A DNA stretch of 64,000 nt from a virus (Duplodnaviria > Caudoviricetes): the IMG/VR virus record IMGVR_UViG_3300028844_006787. One strand, written 5' to 3'. This document shows, piece after piece, positions 2,407-43,053 of the stretch. The position numbers and the translations under genes are program-made. The notes beneath the pieces are model-generated. The model did not search any database. It was given only the letters and a program-made list of their open reading frames with translations, and was not told the origin of the DNA. Within the stretch, counting starts at the first letter, position 1; every line of letters begins with the position of its first letter.

Positions 2407-2435
2407 ACCCTACCAAAATTATTATAATAAGTCAA
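2407..2435 (-). promoter_or_regulatory. Conserved-spacer early-type promoter copy 1 (TTGACT-17-TAGGGT)
   Basis: Member of 16-copy repeat. Confidence 0.8.
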
Positions 2436-16428: not shown

Positions 16429-16457
16429 AGACTACCAAAATTATTATAAAAAGTCAA
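16429..16457 (-). promoter_or_regulatory. Conserved-spacer promoter copy 6 (TTGACT-17-TAGTCT)
   Basis: Member of 16-copy repeat. Confidence 0.85.
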
Positions 16458-16874: not shown

Positions 16875-16903
16875 ATATTACCAAAATTATTATAAAAAGT
16901 CAA
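16875..16903 (-). promoter_or_regulatory. Conserved-spacer promoter copy 7 (TTGACT-17-TAATAT)
   Basis: Shares about 49 bp with copy 15. Confidence 0.85.
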
Positions 16904-23911: not shown

Positions 23912-23940
23912 AATCTAGCAAAATTATTATAAAAAGTCAA
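23912..23940 (-). promoter_or_regulatory. Conserved-spacer promoter copy 8 (TTGACT-17-TAGATT)
   Basis: Member of 16-copy repeat. Confidence 0.85.
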
Positions 23941-24085
23941 GATAATTATTTGCATTTACAATCAGAGCAATTTATTTTACAAGGTTCGCAATAGCAGTAA
24001 TTATCTCCGTTACATTTCTTAAGAGTTCTTACATTAGAAGTATTGCAACCCAATAAAAATAAAGAAAATATAGCAATTAAGTATT

Positions 24086-24802
24086 TCATTTTTTATTAAG
24101 AAGTTTTTCGGAGTTCCATAAATCAGCAGGATTCTGTGCAAGATCAAGAACTTGAATTCTTGCTTTTGTAACTCCATGTTTATCAGTTAAAATTTTTACA
24201 ATCTTTTTTGCTTCTGCGTGAGATTTTGCTTTGGTGTAAAGTAACTCTTCACGTTTTGCTCCTGGTGGTATTCCCCAAATTGGAAACTCTTTTTCAGATT
24301 CGTGTATTCCTCCTGCAGGATTTACATCTAGATCATTAGTCATATCAGAGGCAAGATAATCACGAGCAATATTAAGATAGTCCGCAGATTTGCTTACTTT
24401 ATCCATTAACCAATTTGGTATATCTTCATCGTCATTCATATTCGCAAGCATTTGTAATATGTTTTCTGAATCTTCACACGCAAGTTTAAGTTTTCTTCTA
24501 AGATAAGAAGCATCTCCTTTACCTGAATGATCTTCATTTATATCCTCGGAAAAACTTACTTTTTTATCTTTTGCATTTACAACATAAGTTGTTTGTTTTG
24601 CATTGTGCTTTTTAGCACTTTTTATTGCATCTTTTTGATTTGAAAACTTTTTACGATTGTCATAATCTGTGAACTTATTGTTGTCCCCAAGATACATTTC
24701 ATCGTTTTGTGCATTTGGACGTTTAACAAAAAATTCTGCTTCTGTTAATGCAGATAATTCTTCTCGGACAATTTCTTTGAGTTTTTGCTTTGTAATTTTC
24801 AT
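24086..24802 (-). CDS. MKITK-leader modular protein (three modules)
   Basis: MKITKQKLKEIVREELSALTE leader; internal INE and IHE junctions. Confidence 0.8.
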   Translation of the reverse strand: MKITKQKLKEIVREELSALTEAEFFVKRPNAQNDEMYLGDNNKFTDYDNRKKFSNQKDAIKSAKKHNAKQTTYVVNAKDKKVSFSEDINEDHSGKGDASYLRRKLKLACEDSENILQMLANMNDDEDIPNWLMDKVSKSADYLNIARDYLASDMTNDLDVNPAGGIHESEKEFPIWGIPPGAKREELLYTKAKSHAEAKKIVKILTDKHGVTKARIQVLDLAQNPADLWNSEKLLNKK

Positions 24803-25104
24803 TATTTAATTCCATGTTTCACAAGAAACTTTTTTGCAAGAATCACACCACTATGAGGTGTTTCCATTTTGTATCTTTCGGTATTACTTAACTTTTGATA
24901 TGCTCTAAAAACATTTTTAAGTTTATCTACATCATATGAAGTTTCTTTTGATAAATGATCAACAAATTTTTTTTCATTACTATATCGTCTCATATCAAAT
25001 GAAATCTGATTGATAATGAATTGAAAGTCGGTCAATTGCTCATTTAGAACTGCAAATTCCTCTCGGACAATTTGCTTGATTCTGTTTTTGGAAATTTTCA
25101 TCAA
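24802..25104 (-). CDS. MKISK-leader protein
   Basis: MKISKNRIKQIVREEFAVLNE leader; payload homologous to C-terminus of 26880..27782. Confidence 0.8.
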   Translation of the reverse strand: MMKISKNRIKQIVREEFAVLNEQLTDFQFIINQISFDMRRYSNEKKFVDHLSKETSYDVDKLKNVFRAYQKLSNTERYKMETPHSGVILAKKFLVKHGIK

Positions 25105-25685
25105 TGATCTCTTGCTTTCTTACGAAGACGTTTAAGTGCATTAAATACTTCTCCAATTGCAAGACGATCTTGTTCTACAAAATACAATAAATCACAAACT
25201 GCGTGAGTAACTTCACCAGCATATCCTTTTAGTTTATTGTTTTTTGATACTTTGCGGATTGCAGTATGCATATCAAAATACAGTGATTGAAACTCTTTAA
25301 ATTCTGATTTACCGTTTGCTGAACTTTCATCAACGTCTGCTTCACTTATATTAAGTTTTGCTTTGATTGCTTTTTTAAGAATTGTATCACGTTGAGCATC
25401 GTTTTGTGACATCCATACACTATCGTATGTATTGCCATCTCCGTTGTCGTACAAATCTGTATTAAGTTTTTTTGGAAGAATTTTATGAAATAGACGATTG
25501 TTGTAACTATCTTTTCCACCTGCAATTTTAGCAAATACCATACGCAGAGTATTTTTAACAGTTTTGAAATCTGTATCTTTATCAACAAGATTTGCTTTTT
25601 TCATATTATCAAGAATCACAAGTGCGTCTTTTAAAAACTGCTTTTTGTGTTCAGGTGATACTTTTACTTCATTTACTTTTTTCAT
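25101..25685 (-). CDS. Modular protein of leader array (short MKKVNE leader)
   Basis: VNE at N-terminus, internal ISE junction. Confidence 0.75.
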   Translation of the reverse strand: MKKVNEVKVSPEHKKQFLKDALVILDNMKKANLVDKDTDFKTVKNTLRMVFAKIAGGKDSYNNRLFHKILPKKLNTDLYDNGDGNTYDSVWMSQNDAQRDTILKKAIKAKLNISEADVDESSANGKSEFKEFQSLYFDMHTAIRKVSKNNKLKGYAGEVTHAVCDLLYFVEQDRLAIGEVFNALKRLRKKARDH

Positions 25686-25978
25686 TTGTCATCGGGTCCT
25701 ATTGCTAAATGATTTTTGAATATTCCGAAGATTTCATTGCTAGGAATATATCCAGGAAGAAGTTTGCTTAAATCAGTTGCAGACATTCTTTTTTTCTTTT
25801 TTAAATCTTTTTCAAGTTGTTTCATTCCTTTTGAACCAAGATACTCATCTTCCCAATCAAGATTCTTTTTGATGGTGTCAAGAATAGTTTGTGTTGGTAA
25901 GTCCTTGGAAGTATGAGGACGCATTTCGTTGAGTTCCTCACGAACGATTTGTTTAAGTTGTTCTTTTGTAATTTTCAT
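25682..25978 (-). CDS. MKITK-leader protein
   Basis: MKITKEQLKQIVREELNE leader. Confidence 0.8.
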   Translation of the reverse strand: MKITKEQLKQIVREELNEMRPHTSKDLPTQTILDTIKKNLDWEDEYLGSKGMKQLEKDLKKKKRMSATDLSKLLPGYIPSNEIFGIFKNHLAIGPDDK

Positions 25979-25984
25979 TTTAAA

Positions 25985-26344
25985 TTATTTTTTTAAAATA
26001 CTTTCTATTTTGTTGATATAAGTTTTAAGTGTTTTTAAATAAATTTTTGAATCAGTAACTATATTACCTGTTGGTTTAAATTTAAAAGTTTTACTGAAAA
26101 CTACATTACCATCTTCATCGTTTACTTGAATTGGTATTACTTCTTGTCCGTCCCATCCTAGTGTGGCATAAATTGTACAATCAGGAAACTTTGGATTTTC
26201 CCATGCCCAACTTCCACTCATTCCTTCTACTTCGAGTTTCCAACCCATAAGATTTACTCGTTTTTGTAAAAGAAATTTTTTAAGATTTACATTATCTACT
26301 TCTTCACGAATAATTTCTTTTAATCTGTTTTTTGAAATTTTCAT
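25985..26344 (-). CDS. MKISK-leader protein
   Basis: MKISKNRLKEIIREE leader. Confidence 0.8.
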   Translation of the reverse strand: MKISKNRLKEIIREEVDNVNLKKFLLQKRVNLMGWKLEVEGMSGSWAWENPKFPDCTIYATLGWDGQEVIPIQVNDEDGNVVFSKTFKFKPTGNIVTDSKIYLKTLKTYINKIESILKK

Positions 26345-26883
26345 AACGAAGTTCTAAGACCTGTATGTTGTTCAAACGCATCACGAAGCATATCCGCATA
26401 AATTCCTTTTGCCTTGCTTTTTACTTTTTCTTTGTAGTTTCTTACCGAAAGAAATTCAACATCGTAAGTGTCCATGCTATTCAAATTAATACGAACATAA
26501 TTTACACCTTTTGAATTTCTTCCGATTTTAAATACAACTCCTTTTGGTCCCAAAAAGAAATCTTTTGCTCCAGTCATTGCAATGAAACGACCACCACCTA
26601 GTTGTTTAATAACTTCAGCACCTTGTCGTTTATCCATTCCTTCTGTTATGGATTTCAATTCTTCCTTAATAATTTCTTTGAGTTTTTCTTTGATGTCACT
26701 TATAGGAATAATATCTTCTTCACCCGAAGATGGTTTTACTTTTACAAAGTTGTGTGCGAAACCTTTTCCTTTTCCACCGAGTTTAAGCACTTTTGCTTTT
26801 TTATTATTTTTAAGAGTTACAGTATCTCCGACTTTTAATTCTTCACGAATTATTTCTTTTAGTTTTTGTTTTGTGATTTTCAT
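26341..26883 (-). CDS. MKITK-leader protein with SH3/KOW-like module, second leader copy and QLGGxRF module
   Basis: Leader at N-terminus and again as KEKLKEIIKEELKSITE. Confidence 0.8.
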   Translation of the reverse strand: MKITKQKLKEIIREELKVGDTVTLKNNKKAKVLKLGGKGKGFAHNFVKVKPSSGEEDIIPISDIKEKLKEIIKEELKSITEGMDKRQGAEVIKQLGGGRFIAMTGAKDFFLGPKGVVFKIGRNSKGVNYVRINLNSMDTYDVEFLSVRNYKEKVKSKAKGIYADMLRDAFEQHTGLRTSL

Positions 26884-27782
26884 TTTTTGATTCCTAACTT
26901 TGCAAGAAACTTTTTCATTTTACCTACATCAGTTTGCAGTTCAAATCTATCTTTAGCATTTACTTTCCAATATGCTTTAAACAACTTGATAAGTGTTTTT
27001 TCATCGTATTGAGTATCATCTGACATAAATTTAGCAAAATCACGTTCGGTGTAGTGATCCATTGCATTACTAAGTTGATCAATTAGAAAATCATAATCGG
27101 ACATTGCTTCCGTTACAAAATCTTCTTTAAGTGATGCTTGTAGTTTTTTTAAAATCTTAGCAATGTGTTTTTTAACATCACCTCTAAGTCTACTTTTGTT
27201 TTTTGCAACAATGTCGGCAAGATAATCTACTTTGAAATACTTTAATCCTTTTGTAGTTGCCATAGGATGTGATTCATATCCAAGTGCGTTGATTAAACCA
27301 ACTGCAAGTTGTTGCTCAAGTGAAGATAAAGCACTTGCGTCTATATTTGCTCCACCTTCTTCTGAAATGCCTTCACGTCTCATGCGTTTTCCACGTTTAT
27401 TGGTTTTTCCACCACGTTCATCCCAAACAGAACCCTTGCATTGTTTCATTGCCTCGGAATAAGAATAACCCATTCCCATGTAATCTTGAATGCAGTCGTG
27501 CATTTCTTCGTTGATTGCTTCTGCAAGACGAACTTCACGTTTGTCTCCACCATAAAGTGTTACAGTTGAAGTGCGACCTTTTTTTTGTACATCAACGTGA
27601 CCTTTTAGTTTTCCACTATCATGCACCTTAACAACAACTCCATCGTGGTTACCATTAAATTTTACTTCATCACCAACTTTAAACTTTTGGTTTTCATTAA
27701 CAAGTTCTAATAACACTTCACGAATAATATCTTTAATCTTGTGATGTGATTCTGTTTCATTTGTTTCCTGTGAATTTTCCAT
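26880..27782 (-). CDS. Multi-module protein heading the leader array (start corrected to MENSQ)
   Basis: KIKDIIREVLLELVNE leader variant; ATATTTAT 5 nt upstream of ATG. Confidence 0.8.
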   Translation of the reverse strand: MENSQETNETESHHKIKDIIREVLLELVNENQKFKVGDEVKFNGNHDGVVVKVHDSGKLKGHVDVQKKGRTSTVTLYGGDKREVRLAEAINEEMHDCIQDYMGMGYSYSEAMKQCKGSVWDERGGKTNKRGKRMRREGISEEGGANIDASALSSLEQQLAVGLINALGYESHPMATTKGLKYFKVDYLADIVAKNKSRLRGDVKKHIAKILKKLQASLKEDFVTEAMSDYDFLIDQLSNAMDHYTERDFAKFMSDDTQYDEKTLIKLFKAYWKVNAKDRFELQTDVGKMKKFLAKLGIKK

Positions 27783-27841
27783 AACAATAAATATATATTT
27801 GTTTGATAAAGAATTCAACCAAATATAGTGAATTATGGATA

Positions 27842-28411
27842 TTATTCGTTCATTTCAGGAATATCTAAGTATAATTTGGTAGTTGGATTGCCATTGGCAT
27901 CTTTATCAACTACTTTGATTATCTTACACTTCTTTGGATTTGCTACAAATTTCTTTGGTTCTCCATCTGAATCAAGTAATCTATGTAGTCCTGGTTTTGG
28001 GTTGATTTCAACACACTCTAATAAGTCTTTTCCATTGTGTTCACCTGCATCATATGAATGAGGATATAATCCTTCTTCTTGATTTAAGTAACCAATTATT
28101 CGTCCGTATTTTAATGTACTTCCAATTTTATACGAAACATACTTACCAACATCAAATGTTTCTTTTTTAAATAGATTTCTTCTTGGTGTATATCGTTTTA
28201 GTTTGCTTCGTTTTGTTTTGAATCTTTTTAATTGAGAAGATGCAGTTTCAATTTGCTCAAGTGTTTTGGGATCAATCTCAATACACTCTATCGTTGGATC
28301 ACTTGGATCGTCTGATAATATTGCTACAATTTCTCCGATTCTTTTTTTACCTTTTACGGATACGGTTTCTTTTATCGTATCTCCGATTTTCAATGATCTC
28401 TTTTTAGTCAT
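27842..28411 (-). CDS. Hypothetical protein with two SH3/KOW-like repeats
   Basis: KIGDTI..G.I...IECIEIDP and DVGKYV..G.I...LECVEINP. Confidence 0.7.
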   Translation of the reverse strand: MTKKRSLKIGDTIKETVSVKGKKRIGEIVAILSDDPSDPTIECIEIDPKTLEQIETASSQLKRFKTKRSKLKRYTPRRNLFKKETFDVGKYVSYKIGSTLKYGRIIGYLNQEEGLYPHSYDAGEHNGKDLLECVEINPKPGLHRLLDSDGEPKKFVANPKKCKIIKVVDKDANGNPTTKLYLDIPEMNE

Positions 28412-31475: not shown

Positions 31476-31504
31476 ACTGTACCAAAAATATTATAAAAAG
31501 TCAA
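31476..31504 (-). promoter_or_regulatory. Conserved-spacer promoter copy 9 (TTGACT-17-TACAGT)
   Basis: Member of 16-copy repeat. Confidence 0.85.
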
Positions 31505-32775: not shown

Positions 32776-32804
32776 ACATTACCAAAATTATTATAAAAAG
32801 TCAA
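32776..32804 (-). promoter_or_regulatory. Conserved-spacer promoter copy 10 (TTGACT-17-TAATGT)
   Basis: Member of 16-copy repeat. Confidence 0.85.
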
Positions 32805-39284: not shown

Positions 39285-39313
39285 AGATTACCAAAATTAT
39301 TATAAAAAGTCAA
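39285..39313 (-). promoter_or_regulatory. Conserved-spacer promoter copy 14 (TTGACT-17-TAATCT)
   Basis: Member of 16-copy repeat. Confidence 0.85.
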
Positions 39314-39725: not shown

Positions 39726-40396
39726 TTTAGTATAATGTTACGATAATAAACTTTCATTGGAGGTCCTGCGTGAACTTGCAACGCAAGAAGTCCTTCTGAT
39801 TTTCGGTGCTTGGTATCATTATCTATTACTTCACACATTTTTTTGTTGTTGATGTAATGTTCAAAGTGAAATTCATTTGCTACGATGCGATAATGATTCC
39901 ATTGATTCTTTTTAATGTAACTTCCAAGTTCAGTTGCATTTCCAATTTTAGTGATTTTTTTGATTAACTTTCCATCAGAAGTTCTTGATAATATAGTAGA
40001 ATCTCCTCGCAATGATAATATTCCACGAAATGATTCTCCGTAGCATATTCCTGAGAATTTATCTCCTGATTCAAAATCAGCCTGATACCCACCCACTCGG
40101 AATCCATCGTTATTACCAGGTTTCAAAAAACTTCTGTATTGAATTCCACTATTTCCAGTTTCTATTTTACACTCAAGACTTAACTCAAAGTTTTTTAATG
40201 TTCCGTTTTTCCAAATTAGAAATGTGTTTCCTTTTGTTGGATTTTGTTTTGTATTTGTTCCAACGATTGATTGATTTTGTACACTCCAATGTTGTGAATT
40301 ACCTGACCATCCATTTAAAGTTTTTCCGTCAAATAATGATTGCTCGGCAATTAGTGCATTACACAATAAAACTTTTAAAATAAAGATACTTCTCAC
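39722..40396 (-). CDS. DUF1080 (3-keto-disaccharide hydrolase family) secreted protein
   Basis: [38 protein letters not shown]. Confidence 0.92.
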
Positions 40397-41010
40397 TTTT
40401 CAGAATCTGATATGCGTTCTACAACTTCGTCAATCAAACCATATTCTTTTGCTTCAATAGCAGTCATGTAATAATCACGATCTGTATCCTTTTCAATTTT
40501 TTTGTAAGGTTGACCACTATTATCAGCAAGAACTTGATTTAGAATTCTTCTCCAACGAAGAATCTCTTGTGCTGAAATACTAATATCACTTGCTTGTCCT
40601 TGTGCTCCACCACTTGGTTGATGAATCATTACCCTACTATTCGGAAGAGCAAAACGTTTGCCTTTAGTTCCACTTGATAATAATACTGCTCCCATGCTTG
40701 CAGCCATACCAATGCAATAAGTTGTTACATCACACTCCATAAATCGTAGTGTATCATAAATTGCCATTCCATCTGCAACACTTCCTCCGGGTGAATTGAT
40801 ATAAACATGAACATCCTTCTTGGGGTCTTCCATTTGCAAAAACAAAAGTTGAGCAATAATAGAGTTGGTTACATACGAATCAATTTGTGTTCCGATAAAA
40901 ATAATTCTATCACGAAGCAAACGACTATAAATGTCCCACGCACGTTCTTGACGACCCTCACGTTCATAAACGTGTGGAAGAGGTAAATAAACATTATTTT
41001 GAATTTCCAT
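40393..41010 (-). CDS. clpP: ATP-dependent Clp protease proteolytic subunit (start corrected to MEIQ)
   Basis: [45 protein letters not shown]. Confidence 0.96.
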
Positions 41011-41099
41011 ATCTAACTTAGAATAATGCAACAATCATCTTTGTCAAATGTTTTTATTTTTTTATATTTTTCGTTTTATCACCCATACATTTGCCTATG

Positions 41100-43024: not shown

Positions 43025-43053
43025 ATATTACCAAAATTATTATAAAAAGTCAA
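43025..43053 (-). promoter_or_regulatory. Conserved-spacer promoter copy 15 (TTGACT-17-TAATAT)
   Basis: Shares about 49 bp with copy 7. Confidence 0.85.

Follow-up and report, generated by a model that had tools for sequence, protein, structure and literature searches.

A portable N-terminal leader on shuffling small-domain cassettes, a candidate capsid-targeting signal of marine T4-type phages

Introduction

What does one short N-terminal peptide do on a row of otherwise unrelated small proteins? The question is raised by a 64,000-nucleotide stretch of DNA (the window) from an uncultured marine tailed phage of the Caudoviricetes (IMG/VR record IMGVR_UViG_3300028844_006787), in which seven tightly packed minus-strand genes, p1-p7, lie within positions 24086-27818 and five of the seven begin with the same leader, or tag, MKI(T/S)KxxLKxI(I/V)REE. 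An initial annotation, made from the letters of the DNA, proposed that the leader loads diverse small domains, some of them as polyproteins, into the phage head, where a protease releases them for delivery at infection. In phage T4, propeptides of 10-19 residues act as capsid-targeting sequences (CTSs) and are removed by the head protease gp21 (PMC9026906), and the internal proteins (IPs) of T-even phages are diverse apart from their CTS (PMC3012670). Here we compare the array with related sequences and find it rather probable that the leader is a T4-CTS-like capsid-targeting propeptide carried by shuffling cargo cassettes, some fused into polyproteins that the head protease would cut.

Results

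A conserved peptide in front of unrelated payloads

A six-frame motif scan of the window (full pattern K[IVL][TS]KxxLKxIIxEE) agrees with the listing of open reading frames (ORFs) in giving p1, p2, p4, p5 and p6 a full N-terminal leader and p6 a second, core copy in its interior, as the initial annotation had read them, while a degenerate copy lies near the start of p7 (Table 1). No other occurrence of the motif was found in the window beyond the array. The seven genes, most of which overlap, recur in the independent JGI gene calls on the 205-kb source contig (Ga0309783_1000079, sample 3300028829). A codon comparison shows that the leader copies use different synonymous codons at most positions; what is conserved is therefore the peptide and not a DNA repeat, and selection acts on the peptide. 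Across its occurrences the tag spans 16-21 residues with the general form MKI(T/S)KxxLKxII(R/K)EE(L/I)xx(L)xE, and in the window it ends on [LIV]xE in p1, p2, p4, the internal copy of p6 and p7. Single-sequence AlphaFold models render the leader as a helix (p1 residues 5-25, pLDDT, the predicted local distance difference test, of ~77; p7 residues 6-29), and it is predicted to be an N-terminal amphipathic helix.

The payloads behind this leader are mutually unrelated except for p2/p7 and p6/p7, in line with the initial annotation, and their predicted fold classes vary (β-rich, helical and mixed). Sequence searches of Pfam, PHROGs and the PDB returned no function for any array protein, the sole family being phrog_9437 (function unknown) in the C-terminal domain of p6, for which the ESM Atlas entries are viral hypothetical proteins only. 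No close relatives of p1 were found in IMG/VR, and exact 47-mers of the window occur neither there nor in the JGI metagenome collection. The leaderless p3 matches phrog_308 (‘internal virion protein’) weakly (E 0.003), and a comparison with T4 IPII and IPIII found no similarity, so that p3 was rejected as a relative of either. Thirteen of 14 modules are basic, which in an AT-rich genome is weak evidence.

Module junctions coincide with the leader end

Secondly, the longer array proteins are chains of modules that also occur singly. Residues 7-99 of p2 align with p7 213-299 (E 1.5e-14), the decayed leader included, and p6 7-76 aligns with p7 15-94. An exhaustive search with p7 found each of its modules elsewhere as a single leader-plus-module protein (P0136, P0176/P0174, P0141 and P0128), and the last [LIV]xE of the leader in these proteins aligns exactly on VNE30, INE92, ISE141 and VTE225 of p7. 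Untagged stand-alone forms of module D start at the same point as the p7 junction, the phrog_9437 domain of p6 begins at residue 82 in agreement with its stand-alone homologues and the Atlas model, and module 3 of p1 matches a 68-residue stand-alone Rhodobacter-phage protein from residue 4 of that protein. Every junction in p1, p3, p6 and p7 carries [LIV]xE and corresponds, by alignment, either to the end of a leader or to the opening residues of a homologue that stands alone. The placement of module boundaries at [ILV]xE, at first made by eye, is thereby borne out by homology with single-module proteins. It also agrees with structure prediction: in low-confidence AlphaFold models of p1 and p7 the junction sites all fall at helix ends or in low-confidence linkers and not inside β cores.

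A syntenic relative (L189; gene order CobS-like ATPase, 992-residue protein, array, DUF1549/DUF1501) shows the same modules arranged in another way. Residues 65-180 of p6 correspond there to a separate 120-residue gene with a full N-terminal leader (84% identity), a leader ending LNE21 is joined directly to the part of p1 that follows INE90, the p4 payload comes after VTE108, with another module in front of it, residues 116-190 of p3 (its C-terminal module) are fused behind a leader-tagged protein, and the p7 homologue has a second copy of module D fused to it. By alignment, the modules of the two phages are split and fused differently, always at a tag end.

Internal leader copies usually keep their Met, preceded by Glu-x-Lys. 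This tripeptide was considered as a second cleavage site and rejected. An in-frame Shine-Dalgarno sequence with an A-rich spacer accounts for it better, since free-standing tagged genes are preceded by the same DNA pattern, and the multi-leader chains are therefore in-frame fusions of neighbouring cassettes. In the 320-residue P0127 a full internal leader at residue 228 is followed by module B; to our eye its N-terminus resembles a sugar aminotransferase, and the protein may be a genuine fusion or an artefact of gene calling.

The leader end resembles a gp21-type cleavage site

Among 77 non-redundant tags, 57 (74%) carry [LIVM]xE with its Glu at residues 17-24, mostly at residue 21 or 22, compared with a chance expectation of ~13% (background 1.7% per position); positions beyond 15 lay outside the search pattern. 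The residue that follows is Ala or Gly in 24 of the 57, as in the T4 sites IAE↓A and ITE↓A (arrow, cleavage point), and 90 of 118 internal leader copies retain the site. In four tag-bearing phages the capsid propeptide can be aligned with T4 gp23, and where T4 is cut at LTE↓A these propeptides end in L-(R/D)-E. This ending is of the kind that the initial annotation had anticipated, and it suggests that the tag-bearing phages have a protease of the same specificity as T4.

Within the array, 1,050 module residues outside leaders and junctions contain a single [LIV]xE where composition-preserving shuffles lead one to expect 9.5 (none of 5,000 shuffles was as low), whereas in ordinary proteins, from the window as from four tag-bearing genomes, the motif occurs at 1.12-1.25 times the shuffle expectation. 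Such avoidance, strong for the array and modest in general, is the pattern that would be expected under a protease of that specificity. With candidate cleavage motifs at the junctions and a shortage of them inside the domains, the chains have the layout of polyproteins, whose cleavage is predicted.

Spread of the tag and its position relative to head genes

A strict back-translated DNA pattern of the leader matched 48 IMG/VR contigs, and a relaxed scan of these 48 loci gave 123 tagged ORFs with unrelated continuations, often in arrays. A profile built from 90 leaders and scored among 8,000 candidate proteins returned 1,106 proteins at E<=10, and most of its top 120 matches have 2-4 full leaders per chain. 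The tag is kept in genomes spanning 31-47% G+C.

The head-gene counts that follow cover tag-bearing relatives; for the phage of the window itself, the search covered proteins of the 64-kb window. The initial annotation presupposed a gp21-like protease, and in the relatives one is found: PF03420 (Peptidase_S77) is present in 10 of 15 tag-bearing contigs, including all four that are at least 89% complete, and the five contigs without it are 29-71% fragments in which the capsid gene is likewise missing. Genes for a gp20-type portal, a gp23-type capsid protein and a T4 gp21-type protease are present in each of five large tag-bearing contigs (G001-G005, 105-194 kb). In G002 the interval between portal and protease genes contains two tagged genes, immediately upstream of the protease gene, and a third stands just before the scaffold-like and capsid genes, while in G015 one tagged gene precedes the protease gene and about ten follow it. 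This last contig is 37 kb long and 97% complete according to CheckV, yet it ends in the middle of a tagged array and has no capsid gene; its portal homologue is part of a 1,437-residue ORF (L178/L179, 19949-24262).

Other shared N-termini were seen in these genomes. A second leader family, MIKLKDLL(T/Y)E, opens about eight consecutive genes with unrelated bodies in G015 (L178, 6833-11720); it is ten residues long and has an LxE end as in the T4 CTS. The N-terminus MKK(S/A)ELKxxLKPLIxECIKE is found on a gene near the protease gene (immediately following it in G003 and G004 and, in G001, two genes downstream) and on P0147, where it is fused to module D, and MDKKTWNKILNENTL..E occurs on several small genes inside head modules. 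The head-module loci with these last two N-termini are L144 5867-6169 and 12387-13430 (G002), L129 964-1407, L133 2031-2474 and L136 12669-13133.

Upstream element, promoters and neighbouring genes

The initial annotation had the operon headed by ATATTTAT and not by the early promoter, which holds in part. The motif does lie directly upstream of p7, the first gene, within a conserved 23-nucleotide element, and the early promoter consensus is absent from the 59-nucleotide gap before p7; the element is a candidate promoter or start region and its motif a candidate late promoter, and transcription from an upstream early promoter is taken up in the Discussion. The element contains TATATATTTAT and recurs letter for letter in the syntenic relative, whose flanking proteins share only ~63-67% identity with those of the window, and a TATATATTTAT-like motif also precedes the DUF1549 gene. 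ATATTTAT occurs 27 times in the window against ~22 expected, which is no over-representation. The highly conserved early-type consensus TTGACTTTTTATAATAATTTTGGTA stands before many window genes, among them those on either side of the array, at ~31.5 kb and 23.9 kb.

The array has as neighbours a secreted 1,010-residue protein, the DUF1549/DUF1501 pair and further accessory genes. The untagged gene directly upstream of it encodes a product with two ‘IGD/VGK’ β-like segments that recall module A (similarity to p6 not significant, E 0.58). At its other end a small ORF, which the ENA assembly gene calls include and the JGI calls do not, has an ATGA overlap with the p1 stop codon.

Table 1. Array genes, with their leaders and junctions, and other features of the window (aa, amino acids; HMM, hidden Markov model)
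Feature	Position	Strand	Description
p7	26880-27782	-	300 aa; four-module chain: degenerate leader KIKDIIREVLLELVNE (27693-27740; residues 15-30, ending VNE30), β-rich module A, INE92, module B, ISE141, module C, VTE225, module D
p6	26341-26883	-	180 aa; leader (26836-26883), small β module, internal leader copy KEKLKEIIKEELKSITE (26641-26691) ending ITE81, then phrog_9437 domain (residues 82-180)
p5	25985-26344	-	119 aa; leader (26297-26344; leader HMM 37 bits) and one payload without recognisable family
p4	25682-25978	-	98 aa; leader (25925-25978) ending LNE18 and one payload
p3	25101-25685	-	194 aa; without leader; two modules, junction ISE115
p2	24802-25101	-	99 aa; leader (25039-25101) ending LNE21 and module D
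p1	24086-24802	-	238 aa; leader (24740-24802) ending LTE21 and three modules
p1 junctions	24533-24541; 24299-24307	-	INE90; IHE168
Conserved 23-nucleotide element	27783-27805	-	CAAACAAATATATATTTATTGTT, containing ATATTTAT; directly upstream of p7
Nearest upstream early-type promoter	31476-31504	-	TTGACT...; before the 1010/1024-aa secreted protein gene
Early-type consensus TTGACTTTTTATAATAATTTTGGTA, examples	43036-43053; 39296-39313; 32787-32804; 23923-23940; 16886-16903; 16440-16457; 2418-2435	-	
Untagged gene upstream of the array	27842-28411	-	189 aa; 67% identical in the syntenic relative
Small ORF overlapping the p1 stop	23946-24089	-	47 aa; lipoprotein-like signal (LLGC), Cys-rich tail
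ClpP gene	40393-41034	-	PF00574, 275 bits; adjoins a 3-keto-disaccharide hydrolase-like gene

Discussion

The co-occurrence of the tag with a gp21-type protease, the [LIVM]xE tag ends together with the depletion of the motif inside modules, and the placement of tagged genes by head genes in relatives favour capsid targeting as the most likely role of the leader. The leader would attach its protein to the scaffolding core of a T4-type prohead, a gp21-type head protease would remove the leader by cutting after the Glu of [L/I/V]-x-Glu, and the matured domains, most of them basic, would remain inside until they exit with the DNA. The evolutionary unit is the cassette of leader plus domain, which duplicates, moves and fuses in frame with its neighbours; fused chains keep a leader remnant ending in [LIV]xE at each junction, where the protease could cut them back to single domains. 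Docking, cleavage, packaging and injection are all steps that we infer. Of the cargo system first proposed for this locus, the portable leader, the unrelated payloads, the polyprotein-like fusions and the [ILV]xE junctions have stood, and loading and release is the best explanation for them, reached through indirect lines of evidence.

The closest parallel is the CTS of the T4 IPs, of which IPII and IPIII start MKTYQEFIAE↓A and IPI starts MKTFKEF...ITE↓A. In both systems a short N-terminal peptide, ending (L/I)-x-Glu and often followed by Ala or Gly, is carried by otherwise unrelated, mostly basic small proteins. Their loci vary greatly from one relative to the next, and the phages have a gp21-type protease and a T4-type capsid (here, in the tag-bearing relatives). 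The tag differs in being longer (16-21 residues), in heading up to about ten genes per contig where T4 has three IPs, and in commonly occurring 2-4 times in one chain, a form which is not described for T4 IPs; the function of the tag is a predicted one. The principle is known from T4, and what would be new is the scale and the polyprotein forms. In the literature collection searched, no paper with the motif was found and none tying a capsid-targeting sequence to marine T4-like phages.

The prohead core proteins gp67, gp68 and gp22 of T4 are encoded around gene 21 and are cut at several (L/I)xE sites. They give a precedent for multi-site cleavage of one chain, and the tagged genes of G002 and G015 fill the portal-protease and protease-capsid intervals as genes 67, 68 and 22 do in T4. 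The array of the window, in contrast, is not beside head genes, and no similarity to gp67 or gp68 was seen by eye, no search having been run. In the giant phages phiKZ, 201phi2-1 and SPN3US, ejection and inner-body proteins have propeptides cut after Glu by a gp21-related protease (PMC9026906, PMC7411985). There, too, many head-internal proteins are processed after the Glu of a short motif, and arrays of paralogues are found, but these phages have no single portable N-terminal tag of such a kind and use another cutting motif, and the tag-bearing genomes are T4-type and not phiKZ-type.

Several observations weigh against capsid targeting. No significant sequence similarity links the leader to the T4 CTS, with which it has in common only the MK start and an E-hydrophobic-I-x-E flavour, and the p5 leader and the N-terminal leader of p6 have no [LIV]xE past residue 16, only I-R-E at residues 12-14. 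In IMG/VR payloads overall the depletion of [LIV]xE is modest (ratio 0.90), the single-sequence models on which the position of the junctions was judged have mean pLDDT values of 49 and 47.5, and two payloads have homologues that are small proteins without the tag in non-T4 phages. The window proteins that were searched include no recognised T4-type head gene, and the array sits among accessory genes. A protease, portal, capsid or terminase gene is present in 26 of the 48 tag loci of ~9 kb, a figure inflated by the bias of short IMG/VR contigs towards hallmark genes; in four large genomes 4 of 10 tag clusters lie at most 5 kb and 6 of 10 at most 10 kb from head genes, with a rough chance estimate of 16-22%, and this too we place on the negative side. 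Between the early promoter at ~31.5 kb, ~3.7 kb upstream, and the array no minus-strand terminator-like site was found, and the array may be read through from that promoter. Finally, a DNA pattern search whose positive control worked did not find the tag in the cultured marine T4-like phages HTVC008M, P-SSM2, Syn9 and S-PM2 (cyanophages and a pelagiphage). A tblastn search of cultured phages with the 21-residue leader, a query too short for the purpose, returned nothing, and neither did a six-frame profile search of five cultured phages, run without a positive control.

The main rival explanation, which we regard as unlikely, is that the leader helix serves for general docking or oligomerisation with a partner outside the capsid, perhaps a phage or host complex met early in infection, with [LIV]xE merely a part of the helix. 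The predicted amphipathic helix and the tolerance of internal copies would suit such a role, as would the position of the array among accessory and early-promoter genes, where it may be transcribed early, and the occurrence of payload homologues as small untagged proteins in early-type regions of other phages. A docking helix leaves unexplained, however, why [LIV]xE survives at junctions where the leader has otherwise decayed, why the motif is nearly absent inside modules, and why tagged genes stand beside protease and portal genes in relatives. We consider it improbable that the genes are one old paralogous family with a conserved N-terminus that has no targeting role and with the remainder diverged. 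Their tandem arrangement and the relatedness of the p2/p7 and p6/p7 payloads would fit common descent, whereas the payloads differ in predicted fold class, several exist leaderless in unrelated phages, and the same 16 residues persist in genomes with 31-47% G+C while two syntenic relatives have exchanged payloads.

Still less probable is that a Clp-type or other cytoplasmic protease, or a chaperone, recognises the leader as a tag that sets the lifetime of the proteins bearing it. A genuine ClpP gene does lie in the window, and three of five tag-bearing records tested have a ClpP-like gene, but ClpP is missing from G003 (91% complete), no ClpX-type partner turned up (none was sought), and such a tag predicts neither the junction sites nor the placement in head modules. 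Least probable of all is a role of the conserved segment in mRNA or DNA, as an A-rich, translation-boosting start or as a patch of recombination homology between cassettes: the first codons are A-rich, cassettes shuffle at leader positions and internal copies retain a Shine-Dalgarno sequence and ATG, but synonymous positions vary freely among the window copies, the amino-acid periodicity is kept across very different G+C contents, and eroded internal copies retain the end of the peptide and not its start.

Capsid targeting, if it is the role of the leader, may reach well beyond the phage of the window. We propose, tentatively and with chances a little short of even, that in many uncultured marine T4-type phages one portable 21-residue leader loads small effector domains from a large library that shuffles fast, multi-domain polyproteins cut by the head protease among them, into the capsid for injection, and that in-frame fusion and fission at the leader Glu site are how the cassettes evolve. 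Should the tag do something else, it would still be among the most widespread unexplained short motifs of marine phage proteins. The T4 CTS has been used in the laboratory for packaging foreign proteins, and the tag, if it is a capsid-loading signal, could be a natural handle for packaging them into marine T4-type capsids. If the proposal is true, the cargo system would be far larger and more modular than the three internal proteins of T4, and phage cargo would evolve in cassettes of a leader and a domain, joined and separated at a protease site. It would also provide a simple sequence rule for spotting injected cargo: as a capsid-loading signal, the tag would mark hundreds of ocean-virome proteins of unknown function as likely injected first-strike proteins, such as anti-defence and takeover factors.

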